Source: a virus
Lineage: Duplodnaviria; Heunggongvirae; Uroviricota; Caudoviricetes
Strand: one strand, 5' to 3'
DNA: 5,349 nt
Virus record (IMG/VR): IMGVR_UViG_2684622670_000010
Coordinates: 1-5,349 of that record
Shown here one piece after another: positions 1 through 5,060 of this stretch (positions are counted from its first letter, which is position 1; every line of letters starts with the position of its first letter). The notes below the pieces were generated by a model. It saw nothing but the letters and a program-made list of their open reading frames with translations, was not told the DNA's origin and ran no database searches. The position numbers were made by a program, and so were the translations under genes.

Positions 1-436
1 GTACCGGTTTAACCTCGTCACGGGGCTTTCTGATGGCTGAAAGACGCTTTACAAGCTCGTCCATCGCCTGACTCGATGTATCGATGGTTCCGCTCTGAAT
101 TGGTTCACGCATTTCATCCATGATTTCCAGCACCAGACGGCGGTGATAGTTATCCGCGACCATTCCGGCATATCCCTTCAGGTTTGCGGCGCTCGGGCAG
201 TTTTTGCTGGTCATCAGGATTGACGTGAAATGCTCCTCTCCGCACGCCTCGGCAACCATCAGCGCGTCGATTAGGTTTCTGTTTCTCGCCTGCTTGCGGA
301 TAACCTCGAAGGCTTTCCGGTAGAGCGGAATTGAAAACGCTTCCGGCTCAAGCGTTGCCAGAACGTCACTGGCAATTGGTGTTAATCCACCAATCAGCAG
401 GCCACCGATAACGCTCGCTTCGATATCCTGTTTCAT
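1..436 (-). CDS. DnaB-family replicative helicase, N-terminal part (partial; start codon at 436..434, gene runs off the left edge of the window)
   Basis: Hand translation of the minus strand from ATG 436..434 gives 145 codons with no stop ([34 protein letters not shown]...[34 protein letters not shown]...). The SVIGGLL and KNxPSAAN-x-YA-x-V motifs resemble the N-terminal domain of E. coli DnaB as recalled from memory. The start overlaps the O stop in an ATGA arrangement, and a GGGGGA Shine-Dalgarno lies 4 nt upstream. Position after an O-like gene matches the P22 gene 18 / gene 12 layout. Absent from the ORF track only because it is truncated by the window edge. Confidence 0.75.
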
Positions 437-1254
437 GCAATCCCCCTGTCTGCAAACTTCCCTTCCCGAACTCCCGTTAACGAATCTTCCCTCAGCAGGT
501 AATCAAAATCTGCCGTCCAGCCCGTGTCGTTGTCTCCGAAGTAAAACGGCTTGGCCTGATGCACAAACGCCCTGACATACGCTCTGAAACCGTCCACGTT
601 TGGCGTTTTCAGTTGCGGGATGATTTTCTTCAGGCGGCGTTTGCGTTTCTCGTTGACCGCAACAGCGTGTGGCAGTCTGTCACCGACTTCGGTGTTGTAG
701 GCGTTCAGGAAGGATTCGTAGTCGATGCGTTCTGCCTTGCGACGTTCAGGTTTAACCTGCCCATCGCCGCCCCCGTTAGGGGGTAAGGGGGTATTTGTAT
801 TTATTGTCTTTTGTATATTGTCTTTTGTGTTTAGCTGACTTGGCTTATACCCATTAGCCGAGTCGGCTAATGTTTTATTAGCTGTTTTAGCTAATGTTAA
901 GCTGTCCTGGCTAATCCACTGAGAAACCACCTTGTTCACTCCGATTTTCACGCCATCAGCAATGAGGAATTTACGCTCAATAAGCTGGCGCTTGGCAGCG
1001 CAAACATGAGTGTGATGAATACCTGTCATGGCTGCTATCTGCGTGTTTGTGAGTCGATCCATCGGCTTATTGAATCCGTATGTCTTGCGCATGATAGCGA
1101 GCATCACCTTCAACTGCCGGACAGTTAAATCAGCCATCAGCAGACTGTCGGTAATCTCGTTAGCAACGCGCATGAAACCATCTTCGGTATCTGCCACGCG
1201 ATGCTCCACGACCTCCAGTTGAGGCCTGTAATCAGCTAACTTAACGACGCCCAT
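433..1254 (-). CDS. O: Replication initiation protein, lambda O / P22 gp18 family (273 aa)
   Basis: ORF in the supplied track. Residues about 40-75 ([34 protein letters not shown]) match the conserved N-terminal ori-binding region of lambda O as recalled (DLTKRQFKVLLAILRKTYGWNKPMDRIT). Strong SD (AGGAG, 6-nt spacer) before ATG 1254. Iteron repeats and an AT-rich tract lie inside the coding sequence, as in lambda O. Followed by a translationally coupled helicase gene. Confidence 0.9.
770..830. other. ori flank: AT-rich DNA-unwinding region (792-830) plus a GC-rich palindrome (770-791)
   Basis: 792-830 is almost entirely A/T and holds a 12-bp direct repeat ATTGTCTTTTGT at 803-814 and 817-828. 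Immediately next to it is CCCCC-gtta-GGGGG (770-783) followed by a second GGGGG (787-791). The order iterons, AT-rich tract, palindrome, read in the O coding direction, matches the lambda ori layout as I recall it. Confidence 0.5.
831..915. repeat. Putative ori iterons: four about-19-bp repeats with internal dyad symmetry
   Basis: Seen directly: TTAGCTGACTTGGCTTATA (831-849), TTAGCCGAGTCGGCTAATG (854-872; core TTAGCCGA-G-TCGGCTAA is a perfect palindrome), TTAGCTGTTTTAGCTAATG (878-896), TTAAGCTGTCCTGGCTAAT (897-915). Start spacing is 23, 24 and 19 bp. They lie in the part of O that encodes the inter-domain linker, as the lambda iterons do. Confidence 0.6.
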
Positions 1255-1402
1255 GTTTCACTCCTGCTTTTGCTAGTCTGTAAACACCAACAAGGCGCTC
1301 TGCGAACGCCCTGTTATTTGCTGCGGCTACCACTAATCCCTCAGGTGAATCAGGGTGTCGAATCTCTTCTTTTTCCTGGTATTTCTTACGACGTTTTGTC
1401 AT
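1241..1402 (-). CDS. Hypothetical small basic protein (53 aa) between cII and O
   Basis: Hand translation from ATG 1402..1400: [53 protein letters not shown], stop TAA at 1243..1241. Strong SD: AGGAG, 5-nt spacer, then ATG. The 3' end overlaps the O start by 14 nt. Not in the ORF track (shorter than its apparent cutoff). No recognised homolog, and it overlaps the predicted pO promoter, so it may not be translated. Confidence 0.35.
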   Translation of the reverse strand: MTKRRKKYQEKEEIRHPDSPEGLVVAAANNRAFAERLVGVYRLAKAGVKHGRR

Positions 1403-1411
1403 AATTACTCC

Positions 1412-1488
1412 TGTAGATTGATCCAGTAATTCCCTCAGAATTGCATATCAATTTGCTTAGAGTCCCCGGCGGCCACCGGGGATTTTTT
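1412..1488 (+). ncRNA. oop: oop-like antisense RNA (about 77 nt) overlapping the 3' end of cII
   Basis: Extended -10 promoter on the plus strand (TG-t-CATAAT at 1397-1405) with a predicted start near 1412. Intrinsic terminator at 1464-1488 lies inside the cII coding sequence on the opposite strand. The geometry (about 77 nt, about 53 nt antisense to the cII 3' end, origin in the cII-O interval) matches lambda oop RNA. The -35 is weak and the 5' end is a prediction. Confidence 0.45.
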
Positions 1489-1731
1489 CTTTGTGATTCC
1501 ATCAAGCGCATACTTAAAAGCCCTGCTAATCGGACTGATGTCTGATGCCATTCCGAAAGCACACAAGACCGAAGCAATAAATCTCCAGTCCGTTCTGCTT
1601 ATCTTCGATTCATGACAGCCAATCATCTTTGCCAGACCGCGCTGTGTAAGCGTTGACAGGTTGATGAGTAAATCTGTTTCTGCGCGATCAACGTCGCGCT
1701 GTGATAGTTTGCTGTAACTTGTTTGTTCCAT
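1435..1731 (-). CDS. cII: CII-family transcriptional activator (98 aa; P22 c1 / lambda cII analog)
   Basis: ORF in the track. The HTH segment (GLAKMIGCHESKISRTD) and the C-terminal tail (KKKSPVAAGDSKQIDMQF) parallel lambda CII (recalled ...NKKRPAATERSEQIQMEF). Sits between cro/nutR and the O gene, as in lambdoid phages. Confidence 0.85.
   Translation of the reverse strand: MEQTSYSKLSQRDVDRAETDLLINLSTLTQRGLAKMIGCHESKISRTDWRFIASVLCAFGMASDISPISRAFKYALDGITKKKSPVAAGDSKQIDMQF
1464..1488 (+). terminator. Rho-independent terminator (oop-type) embedded antisense within cII
   Basis: CCCCGG (1464-1469), loop cggcca, CCGGGG (1476-1481), then A and TTTTTT (1483-1488). GC stem plus U-run on the plus strand only. 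Confidence 0.6.
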
Positions 1732-1837: not shown

Positions 1838-2065
1838 TTATGCAGCCAGAAGGTTCTTTTTGCTTATTTCAAGCATTTCGCTTGCTTGATATTTGCCACC
1901 AGAAATCTCTTCGATTTTTGATGCATATTTCGTTTTCCCAAAAAACTCAGTCTTAGGGAGGAAGCCGTTTTTAAGCCACTTATAGACAGCCCTTTCGCTA
2001 ACTCCACAAGCCTTCGCAACTTCAGGGATGCCGACACCTTTAATCGGCTCATCAAGATTTTGCAT
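1838..2065 (-). CDS. cro: Cro-like HTH DNA-binding protein (75 aa from ATG 2065; the track ORF extends to an upstream ATG at 2098)
   Basis: Divergent from the repressor gene. HTH-like segment IPEVAKACGVSERAVYKWLKNG. SD AAGGA lies 7-8 nt before ATG 2065; the upstream ATG 2098 has no SD and sits inside the predicted PR -10. Lysine-rich C-terminal tail. No recalled similarity to lambda or P22 Cro, so the call rests on position and the HTH. Confidence 0.7.
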   Translation of the reverse strand: MQNLDEPIKGVGIPEVAKACGVSERAVYKWLKNGFLPKTEFFGKTKYASKIEEISGGKYQASEMLEISKKNLLAA

Positions 2066-2143: not shown

Positions 2144-2851
2144 ATGGTTCAGAATGAAAAAGTGCGCAAAGAATTCGCCCAGCGGCTAGCGCAAGCCTGT
2201 AAAGAAGCTGGTCTTGATGAACATGGTAGGGGGATGGCCATAGCCCGTGCCCTTTCTCTTTCGTCCAAAGGCGTTAGCAAATGGTTTAATGCTGAGTCTT
2301 TACCGCGTCAGGAAAAAATGAATGCGCTTGCGAAATTTCTAAACGTTGATGTTGTTTGGCTTCAGCACGGCACTTCGTTAAATGGAGCGAATGATGAAGA
2401 TACTCTTTCATTTGTTGGCAAATTAAAAAAAGGGTTAGTGCGCGTGGTTGGTGAGGCAATTCTTGGTGTTGATGGTGCCATCGAGATGACCGAAGAGCGC
2501 GATGGGTGGCTCAAGATTTATAGCGATGATCCAGATGCCTTTGGTCTTCGTGTGAAAGGAGACAGCATGTGGCCCAGAATAAAATCAGGAGAATATGTAC
2601 TCATTGAGCCTAACACCAAAGTATTCCCGGGTGATGAGGTGTTTGTCAGAACCATCGAAGGACACAACATGATCAAGATTCTTGGCTATGACAGAGACGG
2701 AGAATACCAATTTACAAGCATCAACCAAGACCATAGGCCAATAACGTTGCCTTATCATCAAGTAGCAAAGGTGGAGTATGTGGCTGGTATTCTGAAACAA
2801 TCTCGCCATCTGGATGACATCGAGGCAAGGGAGTGGCTGAGAGATTCCTGA
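2144..2851 (+). CDS. cI: Prophage repressor, CI/LexA family (N-terminal HTH domain + C-terminal S24 peptidase autocleavage domain; 235 aa)
   Basis: ORF in the track. N-terminal HTH (GMAIARALSLSSKGVSKWFNAE). C-terminal S24 catalytic serine motif GDSMWP and a downstream lysine (NMIKIL). Divergent from cro with the operator region between. No leader, consistent with PRM-type expression. Confidence 0.9.
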   Translation: MVQNEKVRKEFAQRLAQACKEAGLDEHGRGMAIARALSLSSKGVSKWFNAESLPRQEKMNALAKFLNVDVVWLQHGTSLNGANDEDTLSFVGKLKKGLVRVVGEAILGVDGAIEMTEERDGWLKIYSDDPDAFGLRVKGDSMWPRIKSGEYVLIEPNTKVFPGDEVFVRTIEGHNMIKILGYDRDGEYQFTSINQDHRPITLPYHQVAKVEYVAGILKQSRHLDDIEAREWLRDS

Positions 2852-2957: not shown

Positions 2958-3335
2958 ATGAGCGATAAAGAGTTTAAAGTACTTGATTTTGATGATTTTG
3001 CTCATTATTTGAGCACATTGAACGGCGAACAAATTTGTCCAATGTGTATGGAAGAGTCATGGACGCTTTTCGCCCCAAACAAGCTTCCTCCAGAAGACGA
3101 GGATAGGTATGTAATAAGTTCTATCCCAGGATCACTTATTTCAAGTAAAAAACCTGAAAAATCAAATCTCTTCTTCAGAAGTTACAACAACGATGTCCTC
3201 CTGATGCAATGCAGAAATTGTGGATACATGGCATTTTTTAATTATAAAAAAGTCCAAGAAAACCTTGAATCAGGGGATTATATAAAAAAAGAAGATATAG
3301 ATATGGTGGATGAAAATGACAAATCAGAAGACTGA
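2958..3335 (+). CDS. Hypothetical protein (125 aa) with two CxxC pairs (putative zinc ribbon) and an acidic C-terminus; first gene of the AT-rich cassette after cI
   Basis: ORF in the track. CPMC (residues 27-30) and CRNC (85-88); tail DIDMVDENDKSED. Sampled 60-nt lines give about 25-38% GC against about 52% in cI. Weak SD. Separated from the cI stop by an AT-rich 106-bp spacer. No recognised homolog. Confidence 0.6.
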   Translation: MSDKEFKVLDFDDFAHYLSTLNGEQICPMCMEESWTLFAPNKLPPEDEDRYVISSIPGSLISSKKPEKSNLFFRSYNNDVLLMQCRNCGYMAFFNYKKVQENLESGDYIKKEDIDMVDENDKSED

Positions 3336-3795
3336 TTTCTTCCGTCCAATGGAGTATGATAATAACTATGAGCAATTTGGTGTTATAGAAGCACACAGGA
3401 ATGGTCGTTCTACTCCGTCATATCAGCCAGGCACCATTGGTAAGGATATCCCGGTTATTATTGCGCATAAGTTAAGCGATCAACCAGCAGGGGGTGAGCC
3501 ACAGATGAGCGTAAAATCACTGTCACGTTGGGAGTTTTGGCTAGGGATTTTCACTGCCATTATTGGGATATTTTCCATTGTTGTAGGAGCAACGTGGACA
3601 ATTTCTAATAATATCAATGATAAGATTAATGCATCAAGACAAGAGCTAACTGGGAACATCCAATCCAGTCGAGCAGAAATCACGGCAAGAATTGACAGGC
3701 TCGAAGATAAGATGGAGTCTAATTTCAAAGAAACATCATCGAATCTGTTCAAAATACAGGCAATTCTAGAAGCAAAATCCGACAAAGAAAAATAA
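3316..3795 (+). CDS. Hypothetical single-pass membrane protein (about 159 aa; the track ORF begins at 3310); second gene of the cassette
   Basis: Hydrophobic segment WEFWLGIFTAIIGIFSIVVGATW (about residues 74-96) flanked by K/R on the N-terminal side. C-terminal about 65 residues are polar and heptad-like (ELTGNIQSSRAEITARIDRLEDKMESNF). GGTGGA lies 5 nt before ATG 3316. The start overlaps the upstream gene's stop (3333-3335) by about 20 nt, suggesting translational coupling. About 30-42% GC in sampled lines. Confidence 0.6.
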   Translation: MTNQKTDFFRPMEYDNNYEQFGVIEAHRNGRSTPSYQPGTIGKDIPVIIAHKLSDQPAGGEPQMSVKSLSRWEFWLGIFTAIIGIFSIVVGATWTISNNINDKINASRQELTGNIQSSRAEITARIDRLEDKMESNFKETSSNLFKIQAILEAKSDKEK

Positions 3796-3800
3796 GAAAG

Positions 3801-3827
3801 TCCGGCCTCAGCGCCGGGTTTCCTTTG
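3801..3827 (+). terminator. Rho-independent terminator ending the cI-cassette transcript (tImm-like)
   Basis: UCCGGC (3801-3806), loop cucagc, GCCGGG (3813-3818), then TTTCCTTTG, 6 nt after the stop of the 159-aa gene. The U-tract is interrupted, so predicted strength is moderate. The A-rich 5' flank could allow some bidirectional activity. Confidence 0.5.
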
Positions 3828-4235: not shown

Positions 4236-4571
4236 ATGACGGTAATCGTGTACGGAAAATCAACATTTGCAGGAAATGCCAAAACTCGCCGTCATGAGCG
4301 GCGCAGAAAGCTGGCTATCGAGCGTGATGCCATCTGCAACATCATCGATTCGATCTTCGGCACAGACAGTGAGGAGCCTGTTCAGGAAGCCCCGAGAAAA
4401 CGTTTAAGCCTTTCTGAAAAAGCAATATCACTCGGAAGCCTTCGCTGCAAGAAGGCAGAAGAAGTCGAGCGTAAACAGAACCGTATTTACTACCGCAAGC
4501 CACGCAGTGAAATGGGTGTGACTTGTGTTGGTCGCCAGAAAATGAAATTAGGCAGCAAACCACTTATTTGA
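4236..4571 (+). CDS. N: N-family transcription antiterminator (111 aa) with a P22-type arginine-rich motif
   Basis: Internal ATG 4236 of track ORF 4152..4571, preceded by SD GAGGA with a 7-nt spacer. The N-terminus MTVIVYGKSTFAGNAKTRRHERRRKLAIERD contains GNAKTRRHERRRKLAIER, which I recall as the P22 N boxB-binding peptide. The C-terminus (RIYYRKPRSEMGVTCVGRQKMKLGSKPLI) parallels lambda N as recalled (RTWYSKPGERGITCSGRQKIKGKSIPLI). First gene after pL/nutL. Confidence 0.85.
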   Translation: MTVIVYGKSTFAGNAKTRRHERRRKLAIERDAICNIIDSIFGTDSEEPVQEAPRKRLSLSEKAISLGSLRCKKAEEVERKQNRIYYRKPRSEMGVTCVGRQKMKLGSKPLI

Positions 4572-4579
4572 GGTGATAT

Positions 4580-5029
4580 ATGGAAGAACAAGCAAACAAG
4601 ATTCTCGTAGAACTACTGCAAAAAGCCAGCAATGGAATAGACGCGGCCGTTTCATTTAGCCAGGCACAGATTCCTGATGTTGTTCATCAGTTGCTGCTAT
4701 GGAATATGGTTGACAGTCTGATTAAAACATTAATAGCCATTCTAACAATCCCACTGGTTTTCTGGTTTATGAAGAAGCAGTGCCAAAGAGTTGAGATAGG
4801 TAAAATCGGTGATGAAGGATATTCATGGGAGAAGGGAAATCCCAAATACAGGCCGACAATGGTTTGGGATAGCAAAGGTGATATTAATCTTCTTATCATG
4901 CCATTGGTTGGAGTTTTGACTCTGTGGGGGATTTTTATTATTGGTGTAGTAACCAATATGACTTGGTTAAAAATTTGGCTGGCTCCAAAGCTTTACCTTA
5001 TCGAATATGCAGCATCATTGGTTAAGTAA
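4580..5029 (+). CDS. Hypothetical small membrane protein (149 aa, two predicted TM segments) immediately downstream of N
   Basis: ORF in the track. The ATG lies 8 nt after the N stop and is preceded by GAGGTGA. Hydrophobic segments IKTLIAILTIPLVFWFM and LLIMPLVGVLTLWGIFIIGVVTNMTWL. Followed directly by an intrinsic terminator. No homolog recognised. Confidence 0.6.
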   Translation: MEEQANKILVELLQKASNGIDAAVSFSQAQIPDVVHQLLLWNMVDSLIKTLIAILTIPLVFWFMKKQCQRVEIGKIGDEGYSWEKGNPKYRPTMVWDSKGDINLLIMPLVGVLTLWGIFIIGVVTNMTWLKIWLAPKLYLIEYAASLVK

Positions 5030-5033
5030 TTTC

Positions 5034-5060
5034 AGGCCGCATAGTCGGCCTTTATTTTTG
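5034..5060 (+). terminator. Rho-independent terminator (tL1-like) after the N / membrane-protein pair
   Basis: AGGCCG (5034-5039), loop catagt, CGGCCT (5046-5051), then TTATTTTTG (5052-5060), 4 nt after the stop codon. Confidence 0.7.

Follow-up and report, generated by a model that had tools for sequence, protein, structure and literature searches.

The oop RNA of phage lambda is a textbook antisense RNA whose mechanism has been described in several reports (PMC3349717, PMC5869508, PMC3985674). It is stated to overlap the lambda cII gene by 55 nt (PMC3349717). Lowering of cII through RNase III has been documented for lambda only (PMC5869508, PMC3349717), and a LexA site within oop-pO has been cited (PMC5869508). 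Hayes 2012 (PMC3349717) mapped the gene order cII-oop-"orf"-O-P, with an additional open reading frame (ORF) between oop and O, in 23 lambdoid phages, HK97 and Nil2 among them. In HK97 the ORF at this place is gp53. Members of the gp53 family are labeled 'orf54' or 'orf' in Fig. S2 of Hayes 2012, are annotated as a hypothetical protein in Nil2, Stx2 phage 1717, HK629 and HK75, and also include ES18 gp58 and epsilon34 gp49.

Results

Layout of the cII-O region

The window, which is the whole 5,349-nucleotide stretch of viral DNA analyzed here, covers a lambdoid immunity/replication region whose early-right operon lies on the minus strand (Table 1). The interval between the cII stop and the O start (1255-1434) measures 180 bp, and the lambda counterpart measures 32 bp (38654-38685), in agreement with the 180 bp against about 30 bp given in an earlier sequence-only reading of this DNA. 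Positions 1395-1800 of the window share 91% DNA identity with lambda cII. The O-type protein is 51% identical to P22 gp18 and 41% identical to the N-terminal domain of lambda O. The interval very probably consists of two overlapping genetic units of standard lambdoid architecture, with oop on the plus strand and a protein gene on the minus strand.

Table 1 Positions of the features in and around the cII-O interval of the window.
Feature	Position	Strand	Remarks
O-type replication initiator	433..1254	-	273 aa; Pfam Phage_rep_O, 5.7e-33
ori repeats in O	831-915		four 18-nt repeats
Small ORF/O junction	1241..1265	-	O SD AGGAG 1261-1265 and ATG 1252-1254 inside the last codons of the small ORF
Small protein gene, HK97 gp53 family (PHROG 1331)	1241..1402	-	53 aa; SD AGGAG 1408-1412
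pO -35 position, TGGTAT	1377..1382	+	17-bp spacer; in small-ORF codons K7-Y8-Q9
33-bp segment conserved among lambdoid phages	1395..1427	-	holds oop 5' end, SD, -10/ATG and first codons; upstream mosaic junction
pO extended -10, TGTCATAAT	1397..1405	+	TG 1397-1398, CATAAT 1400-1405; identical to lambda TTTGTCATAAT
LexA-box-like CTG-N10-CAG, CTGTAGATTGATCCAG	1411..1426	.	at oop start; sole such motif in the window
oop-like antisense RNA (predicted)	1413..1489	+	77 nt, ends +/- 2 nt; 5' stem-loop and terminator hairpin
cII	1435..1731	-	98 aa; Pfam Phage_CII, 2.1e-31; last 55 nt complementary to the oop-like RNA
tO intrinsic terminator inside cII 3' end	1459..1492	+	stem 1459-1469/1476-1486; T-run 1483-1488 plus CTTT

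The oop-like RNA and its terminator

The alignment to lambda picks up exactly at TTTGTCATAAT and continues through the terminator. The start of the predicted RNA was placed by aligning it to the 5' G of lambda oop, and the resulting 77 nt are identical to lambda oop at 56 positions (73%) and 91% identical to the HK97 copy. The RNA would be complementary to the last 55 nt of cII in the pR transcript and to the bases that follow, up to 1 nt upstream of the small-ORF SD. Its predicted fold has two hairpins and a minimum free energy of -32.6 kcal/mol (z = -6.3), a stability equaled by none of 200 shuffled sequences. The conserved 33-bp segment matches the published pO/oop segment ACTGGATCaATCcACAGGAGTaATTATGaCAAA (Hayes 2012, PMC3349717) at 32 of 33 positions, with 0 such matches expected by chance.

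A terminator scan identified the tO stem with 11 pairs and the loop CGGCCA; the scan alone is weak evidence, as it returned four terminator-like sites in 1.3 kb against 1.2 expected. Over 11 aligned homologs the helix was 96.7% paired, against 40-51% for slid controls, and compensatory double changes were observed in four of the 11 pairs, a covariation reached by none of 500 shuffles. The 5' stem of oop is less well supported (72-89% of cells paired). About 50 different hairpin sequences were found at the tO place among relatives, and the hairpin and T tract are retained even where they lie outside any coding region (locus L329). A strict terminator regular expression left 46 of 159 sequences without a match and was set aside, since inspection showed a hairpin followed by an interrupted T tract in nearly all of them. 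In about one quarter of the loci the predicted oop-type RNA is entirely intergenic. An Rfam search of the whole window at E <= 1 returned 0 matches, which says little because no oop family was seen in Rfam.

The records of the close relative HK629 and of P22 annotate oop at the matching place. The P22 oop, with identical -10 and +1 sequence, was detected by RNA-seq (PMC13397905), and OOP-BTP1 was detected by dRNA-seq (PMC7067206). Both of these phages carry the unrelated orf48 and another -35 in place of the gp53-type arrangement. BTP1 was considered as direct evidence for the gp53-type promoter and rejected on the grounds that it carries the P22-type orf48.

The sequence-only reading had proposed a plus-strand intrinsic terminator in the 3' end of cII, an extended -10 about 77 nt upstream of its end, and a match to lambda oop. 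The terminator was located and its helix covaries, the distance from the predicted start to the end is 77 nt, and the match extends to sequence, position, length, fold and the 55-nt overlap with cII. These results support the plus-strand unit as a true homolog of lambda pO-oop-tO, with the RNA itself being a prediction.

The putative pO promoter

The -35 position of pO matches TTGACA at just two of six bases, and for this reason a simple -35/-10 scan did not call the promoter. It coincides in position with the annotated -35 of the P22 oop promoter (TGGTCA). A -10-like hexamer 17 bp from TGGTRN is retained in 155 of 159 unique relatives, and where the N-terminus of the small ORF is one codon shorter the -10 is shifted by 3 nt. 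The Y-Q-E codons of the small ORF are near-invariant at synonymous sites (TAC in 102, CAG in 108 and GAA in 107 of 110 sequences), whereas flanking codons vary. We infer that this position, a weak match to consensus, functions as the pO -35. The CTG-N10-CAG motif at the start of oop is not significant by itself (one found, about one expected in the window); its position is homologous to that of CTGTTGATAGATCCAG in lambda, and by homology only CTGTAGATTGATCCAG may be a LexA site.

The small ORF

The small ORF encodes a protein 100% identical to HK97 Gp53 that aligns with phrog_1331 over residues 1-53 of 53 (E = 1.4e-37). It contains 14 lysine and arginine residues and has a pI of 10.7. The earlier description of a 53-aa lysine/arginine-rich ORF with a near-ideal SD was accurate (AGGAG, 5 nt, ATG at 1400-1402), as was the placement of its start codon within the pO -10, where CAT is the complement of the ATG. 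A comparison with relatives for frameshifts and stops, which the same reading had suggested, found none: the ORF is uninterrupted in all of about 320 loci, including 20 missed by the search motif, and purifying selection is confined to its own frame.

The set contains 110 distinct DNA and 63 distinct protein sequences from Escherichia, Salmonella, Enterobacter, Citrobacter, Cronobacter and other hosts, with indels that are in-frame and of two codons. Entropies at the three codon positions were 0.40, 0.25 and 1.01, the third position varying most. Over the 110 distinct sequences the pooled pN/pS was 0.19, the median dN/dS was 0.09 and 0 stops were present, while the other five frames had either ratios above 1 or 85-258 stops. 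Strong three-base periodicity and a pN/pS of 0.19 were seen in the central 37 codons, clear of the overlapping DNA elements. Matches were found in 999 of 5426 complete E. coli genomes, or about a fifth. Judged by this pattern of substitution, the small ORF is a real gene at the evolutionary level, and because its amino-acid sequence is under purifying selection, the peptide itself probably does something.

Of 302 loci, 299 have an overlap of exactly 14 nt between the small ORF and the O-type replication gene. The window has the same 14-nt overlap, with the small-ORF stop (1241-1243) ending 14 nt past the O ATG, which bears out the earlier claim that the end of the ORF overlaps the O start. The ORF remains with O where another gene is inserted upstream, and the divergent members P0077 (the most divergent) and P0064 also overlap a Phage_rep_O gene. 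An identical small ORF is common to many mosaic phages with different flanks. The SD of O is strong, with a 6-nt spacer. A buried O ribosome-binding site that would force coupling was considered and rejected, as its unpaired probability was 0.44 against 0.38 in the ORF interior; the fold of the 226-nt mRNA departed only slightly from random (z = -2.0).

Scans of the 53-aa protein with Pfam, NCBIfam and PADLOC gave no match. An AlphaFold2 model from a 35-sequence alignment was of moderate confidence (pLDDT 67.6) and showed a disordered basic N-terminus followed by two helices (residues 20-29 and 31-46). Neither Foldseek searches of PDB and BFVD nor a profile search of PDB sequences returned anything but noise (E > 5). 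When 1.8 billion representatives were searched exhaustively with a HMMER profile, only 24 small proteins were retrieved, all of the gp53 family and never a domain of a larger protein. A full-text literature search with the peptide sequence found no paper.

Discussion

Our main reading, to which we assign a probability of roughly 0.85, is that the interval combines a pO-oop-tO unit with a gp53 gene that has an O-linked accessory role. RNA polymerase would start about 7 nt after the extended -10 TGTCATAAT, near 1413, and terminate at the hairpin and T-run near 1489, yielding a transcript of 77 nt. On the basis of its homology with lambda oop, the transcript would pair with the rightward pR transcript over the cII 3' end and the cII-to-ORF spacer, and the pairing would lead to RNase III-dependent cleavage, lower CII and favor lytic growth. 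The oop-like RNA is probably LexA-repressed, and pO would also damp convergent pR transcription. The small ORF would be read from the pR transcript as the first cistron of the replication module, with an SD and ATG that are those of lambda O. With the SD and ATG of O lying inside its last codons, it is probably co-translated with O. Gp53 would act as an accessory to the O-type initiator, most likely by modulating O or ori, or else a host replication factor, in the early stage of infection. Since no relative was found in Pfam, NCBIfam, PADLOC, PDB or BFVD and the AlphaFold2 model is of only moderate confidence, gene linkage is the one line of evidence that points to this role. P22 gp18 functions alongside a leader ORF of unrelated sequence and lambda O does without one, and gp53 is therefore no general requirement of O-type initiators.

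An extension of this reading treats the sense/antisense pair as a co-evolving dual-use element. The Y-Q-E codons would serve as the pO -35, which would explain the frozen synonymous sites and the 17-bp spacing. The conserved target of oop-type RNAs would be the junction just upstream of the first replication cistron and not the cII coding sequence, as suggested by the loci in which the predicted RNA is entirely intergenic. Under this proposal oop would tune the gp53-O cistrons in addition to CII, with gp53 as a new small regulator of initiation by O. Taken as a whole, we consider this extension speculative and rather unlikely.

On the plus strand, the hairpin could arise simply from cII coding or terminate transcription in both directions, with pO dead since the lambda -35 was replaced and no oop RNA made. 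The 2/6 match to TTGACA and the consensus scan without a promoter call fit this proposal, but a -10 with a TG extension is known to be able to work without a -35. Nearly all divergent relatives (155/159) also keep the -10-like hexamer and its 17-bp geometry, with compensating shifts, and synonymous sites are frozen at the -35 position while flanking codons vary. An origin as a by-product is countered by the covariation of the terminator stem and by the persistence of the hairpin and T tract outside the coding region in L329. We regard a dead pO as very improbable.

For the minus strand, it could be that only translation of the small ORF matters, for ribosome delivery to O, for mRNA protection or as a bridge from the conserved recombination segment to an O gene with a start further downstream, with an inactive peptide. 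Unrelated ORFs do fill this slot (gp53, and orf48 in P22 and BTP1) with a common SD/ATG, all overlap an O-like start, lambda has none, and the 14-nt overlap is constant. Against this, selection on the amino-acid sequence is indicated by dN/dS values of 0.09-0.19 and, across genera, by substitutions that are conservative and indels that stay in frame. O has a strong SD of its own and a start region with no more structure than the ORF interior, and so gives no sign of needing coupling. An inactive peptide thus seems quite improbable. That the ORF is non-coding, its conservation coming from DNA or RNA elements (the pO -35, the O ribosome-binding site, a recombination linker) and from recent common descent, would accord with the functional DNA elements at both of its ends and with identical copies in mosaic phages with different flanks. 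This explanation is effectively refuted by the periodicity, pN/pS of 0.19 and 0 stops of the central 37 codons and by the failure of the alternative frames, and we give it almost no weight. The reading of an active pO-oop-tO unit opposite a protein-coding gp53 gene is preferred.

Both the oop RNA and the gp53-type ORF have already been described in related phages, so that the observation is correct but ordinary and carries little weight as a discovery. The additions made here are modest: the Y-Q-E codons fall at the pO -35 position, are almost free of synonymous change and preserve the 17-bp spacing. The gp53 family emerges as a small protein that is widespread, strongly conserved and probably expressed early in Shiga-toxin and other lambdoid prophages. 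It is annotated as hypothetical in HK97, Nil2 and Stx phages. The analysis shows a real gene tied to the replication initiator. Mutagenesis must respect three overlaps, of the ATG with the pO -10, of codons 7-10 with the pO -35 and of the last codons with the ribosome-binding site of O; with these mapped, a clean genetic test of gp53 is feasible.

Comparison with known systems

The closest described locus is that of HK97, where gp53 has 100% amino-acid identity, lies at the same place between oop and O and has the same overlap with O; the window holds another copy. P22 orf48, which is present but unannotated in BTP1, occupies the same slot, is similar in size (48 aa) and carries ACCAGGA at nt 23-29, the pO -35 position. 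Its start is the same SD/ATG within the conserved 33-bp segment, and its end overlaps gene 18, which is O-like. It differs in that this overlap is 8 nt against 14 and in having no detectable protein similarity to the gp53 family. Homology of orf48 to gp53, as suggested by wording in the literature, was rejected, as the two are unrelated beyond the first codons and ACCAGGA, and orf48 is a positional analog only.

With lambda oop the locus shares the position and strand relative to cII, the 77-nt length, the 55-nt overlap with the cII 3' end, the -10 TTTGTCATAAT, the +1 region, the two-hairpin architecture and a CTG-N10-CAG at the start. The -35 is TTGAGT in lambda and TGGTAT here, where it comes from the small ORF instead of O. 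The register of the 5' stem is shifted (AGATTGAT/ATCAATTT here, AGATCCAG/CTGGATTT in lambda), and pO is about 150 bp further from the ori repeats than lambda pO. The intertwining of oop and the small ORF noted in the sequence-only reading is real but inherited, as the lambda O start codon sits in the same pO -10. The lambda O start has the SD GGAG, a spacer, the ATG and then the five bases ACAAA, all of which recur at the start of the small ORF here. In lambda this start opens O itself, whereas here it opens the 53-aa ORF, and O begins 148 nt further with its own SD.

Layout of the window and its nearest relatives

The window (5349 bp) contains the immunity and replication region of a lambdoid prophage in reverse orientation. 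Positions 1100-1800 share 98.6% identity with Escherichia phage SH2026Stx1, 97% with each of Nil2, Stx2 phage 1717 and phage 2851, and 95% with HK97. Four 18-nt repeats resembling TTAGCTGNNNNGGCTAAT, spaced by 20-24 bp, occur at 831-915 within the O gene and are presumably the ori iterons of this replication module. Two ORFs directly 3' of cI, at 2958-3335 (+, 125 aa) and 3310-3795 (+, 161 aa), occupy the slot of lambda rexA/rexB and are followed by a hairpin and T-run near 3797-3825. Neither had a match in a Pfam search, and both may be exclusion or defence genes expressed in the lysogen. Just past the N gene lies a 149-aa ORF with hydrophobic stretches (4580-5029, +), also without a Pfam match; a hairpin resembling a terminator comes after it, near 5031-5055.

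Features of the window, by position and strand
Feature	Position	Strand	Detail
O-type initiator	433-1254	-	Phage_rep_O 6e-33
Small ORF	1241-1402	-	53 aa
pO -35 position	1377-1382	+	TGGTAT
Extended -10	1397-1405	+	TGTCATAAT
cII	1435-1731	-	Pfam Phage_CII 2e-31
Intrinsic terminator	stem 1459-1469/1476-1486; T-run 1483-1488	+	11 pairs
cro	about 1838-2065	-	
cI	2144-2851	+	
N antiterminator gene	4236-4571		Pfam N_peptide 2e-26
P/DnaB-like gene		-	start only

An oop unit opposite the 3' end of cII

The predicted RNA spans 1413-1489 on the plus strand (77 nt), its start at G1413 being set by alignment with lambda. In this alignment, homology to lambda is missing across the small ORF, restarts exactly at TTTGTCATAAT and extends through the terminator. 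The predicted RNA shares 73% identity with lambda oop and 91% with the HK97 copy, and, like lambda oop, it overlaps cII by 55 nt. Hayes et al. (2012, PMC3349717) described a 33-bp segment shared by 23 lambdoid phages, and 1395-1427 agrees with it at 32 of 33 bases. A simple sigma-70 scan did not call the promoter at 1377-1405, owing to the poor match of its -35 hexamer. The predicted fold (-32.6 kcal/mol, z -6.3) consists of a stem-loop at the 5' end and the hairpin of the terminator, and so shares the two-hairpin architecture of lambda oop. Across 11 aligned homologs the terminator helix was 96.7% paired, and four of its 11 pairs carried compensatory double changes; covariation this high was seen in 0 of 500 shuffles, and pairing fell to 40-51% once the partner was offset by 1-3 columns. 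When the register was fixed the 5' stem was less well supported than the terminator helix, its register in lambda and in the window being offset by a few bases. The sequence CTGTAGATTGATCCAG at 1411-1426 is homologous to that of a LexA site reported inside lambda oop-pO (PMC5869508), and as a motif on its own it was not significant in the window.

Related units are already annotated in HK629 ('similar to coliphage lambda oop RNA') and in P22 (oop promoter and terminator). The RNA has been detected for P22 (PMC13397905) and, as OOP-BTP1, for BTP1 (PMC7067206), and a 2025 review lists OOP under 'lambda and Stx phages' (PMC12197685). The 5' sequence of P22 oop, GAUUGAUCCAGU, is the same as that in the window. 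Judged by homology, fold and the covarying terminator helix, the plus-strand unit is a homolog of lambda oop, in agreement with the sequence-only reading.

The small ORF as a gene

That reading had also described, within a 180-bp cII-O interval, a lysine/arginine-rich 53-aa ORF whose expression was unclear. The terminator, extended -10, Shine-Dalgarno sequence and start codon, and the ORF itself, were all found where it had placed them; the interval measured 180 bp (1255-1434) versus 32 bp in lambda. The ORF is preceded by AGGAG at 1408-1412, with a 5-nt spacer to the ATG at 1400-1402, and stops 14 nt beyond the O ATG. Its product (pI 10.7, 14 K+R) is identical to HK97 Gp53, matches PHROG 1331 at 1.4e-37 and is labelled by PGAP as a hypothetical protein.

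About 320 loci were gathered from viral contigs and genomes. An ORF of 52-55 aa was uninterrupted in all of them except one viral contig (L166, 1191-2181), the sole non-canonical copy, in which the small ORF and O are fused in frame into a 329-aa product, either as a natural frameshift variant or by sequencing error. Twenty loci missed by the search motif were conservative variants. The family comprised 110 distinct DNA sequences encoding 63 distinct proteins (Escherichia, Salmonella, Enterobacter, Citrobacter, Cronobacter, Lelliottia and others), with identities down to about 62% and in-frame two-codon indels, and mean entropy at codon positions 1, 2 and 3 was 0.40, 0.25 and 1.01. Selection was assessed on the 37 central codons, which are free of overlap with other known signals. 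Here pooled pN/pS was 0.19, median pairwise dN/dS was 0.09 and there were 0 stop codons, versus 85-258 stops or ratios >1 in the other five frames. Stops or frameshifts in relatives had been named as what would count against the ORF; since it is intact and dN/dS is low, that objection falls away. By these measures, the small ORF is a real gene under protein-level selection. For the two units together, the observation is confirmed and its interpretation supported.

Intertwining of the small ORF with pO

The ATG of the small ORF is the complement of CAT within the pO -10. In lambda the O gene itself opens at this Shine-Dalgarno sequence and ATG (GGAGTCATTATGACAAA), and therefore the placing of a start codon within the pO -10 is ancestral; in the window the small ORF has replaced O at this start. 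In 155 of 159 distinct upstream sequences TGGTRN is separated by 17 bp from a -10-like hexamer. In variants with an eight-codon N-terminus the -10 is TG-extended and reads CATAAT or CATACT, and in seven-codon variants it is shifted by 3 nt and reads TAAAAT or TAGAAT. The Tyr-Gln-Glu codons at the -35 position are near-invariant (TAC 102/110, CAG 108/110, GAA 107/110), with third-position entropies of 0.07-0.15 versus a median of 1.3 elsewhere, and neighbouring codons vary freely. Both the gp53-family ORF (window 1373-1381) and the unrelated orf48 of P22 (1872-1878 of the P22 locus) have ACCAGGA as their nt 23-29, coincident with the pO -35 position. These frozen synonymous sites suggest selection on the pO -35 within coding sequence. 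CCAGG within this heptamer is a site for Dcm methylation.

At L327 (2447-2526), the member that diverges most from the rest of the family, a near-consensus antisense promoter, TTGATA-17-CATAAT with a TG extension, likewise overlaps the ATG. The hairpin close to it, however, carries the T-run on the sense strand and so resembles a terminator that is rightward or bidirectional more than a classic tO. At 77 of 280 loci, about a quarter, the upstream gene stops at least 78 nt ahead of the small ORF, so that the predicted oop-type RNA is wholly intergenic and antisense to no coding sequence. At one locus (L329, 2414-2501) the upstream gene encodes a YdaT-like protein instead of CII, and the predicted RNA comprises a hairpin at 2464-2433 and a T tract.

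Linkage to O and possible function

At 299 of 302 loci the overlap between the small ORF and an O-like gene (start MGVV...) is exactly 14 nt. An identical 53-aa gene adjoins cII C-termini of at least three types (loci such as L010-L089) and two very different O proteins, a 273-aa HK97 type and a 296-aa Sf6/HK629 type, alike only in their first ten residues (window 1225-1254). These varied flanks place recombination junctions on both sides of the ORF, one within the 33-bp pO/oop segment and the other some 30 nt inside O. Two contigs (L167/L168, ~650-1190) have an inserted 178-aa gene (MILTVSKNALLSAMIFQAKGDVRYYLNG...) that separates the cII-like gene from the small ORF, which still adjoins O; no oop-like promoter and terminator pair was evident upstream of the small ORF. 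The most divergent members (P0077, P0064) retain the overlap with a Phage_rep_O gene, their upstream neighbour coding for CII, for a YdaT-like protein or for an unknown product. The conserved overlap and co-retention beside O indicate that the small ORF belongs to the replication module.

No match to the 53-aa protein was found in Pfam, NCBIfam or PADLOC, and a profile search of 1.8 billion representatives returned 24 small proteins, all of the same family, and nothing else. The AlphaFold2 model (pLDDT 67.6) has a disordered basic N-terminus and helices at 20-29 and 31-46, without a significant neighbour in PDB or BFVD. The overlap could be read as that of a pure coupling leader for O. This reading is unsupported because the predicted mRNA structure does not bury the O initiation region, and amino-acid conservation of the small ORF also speaks against it. 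Our best guess, from gene linkage, is that the small protein may be an accessory to, or modulator of, O-dependent initiation.

Comparison with known systems

The gp53 family is no universal partner of O-type initiators: lambda O has no leader ORF, and P22 gp18 is 51% identical to the O protein of the window, yet is accompanied by the unrelated orf48. In the P22 RefSeq record (NC_002371, 1850-1996) orf48 is labelled 'tail protein', very unlikely given its position and size, and in that of BTP1 (NC_042346) the 173 bp that separate the cII-like gene from O include an unannotated homolog at 30566-30712. The combination of oop and small ORF in the window is correct and already known, given the cII-oop-'orf'-O-P layout of Hayes et al., the PGAP annotation and the 999 complete E. 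coli genomes, out of 5426, with a match to 1200-1520. To this the present analysis adds a quantitative demonstration of protein-level selection on the small ORF, the conserved pO geometry and the near-absence of synonymous change at its -35 position, the constant 14-nt overlap with O, and the finding that at least two families without relation to each other, the gp53 type and the P22 orf48 type, fill the published 'orf' slot.
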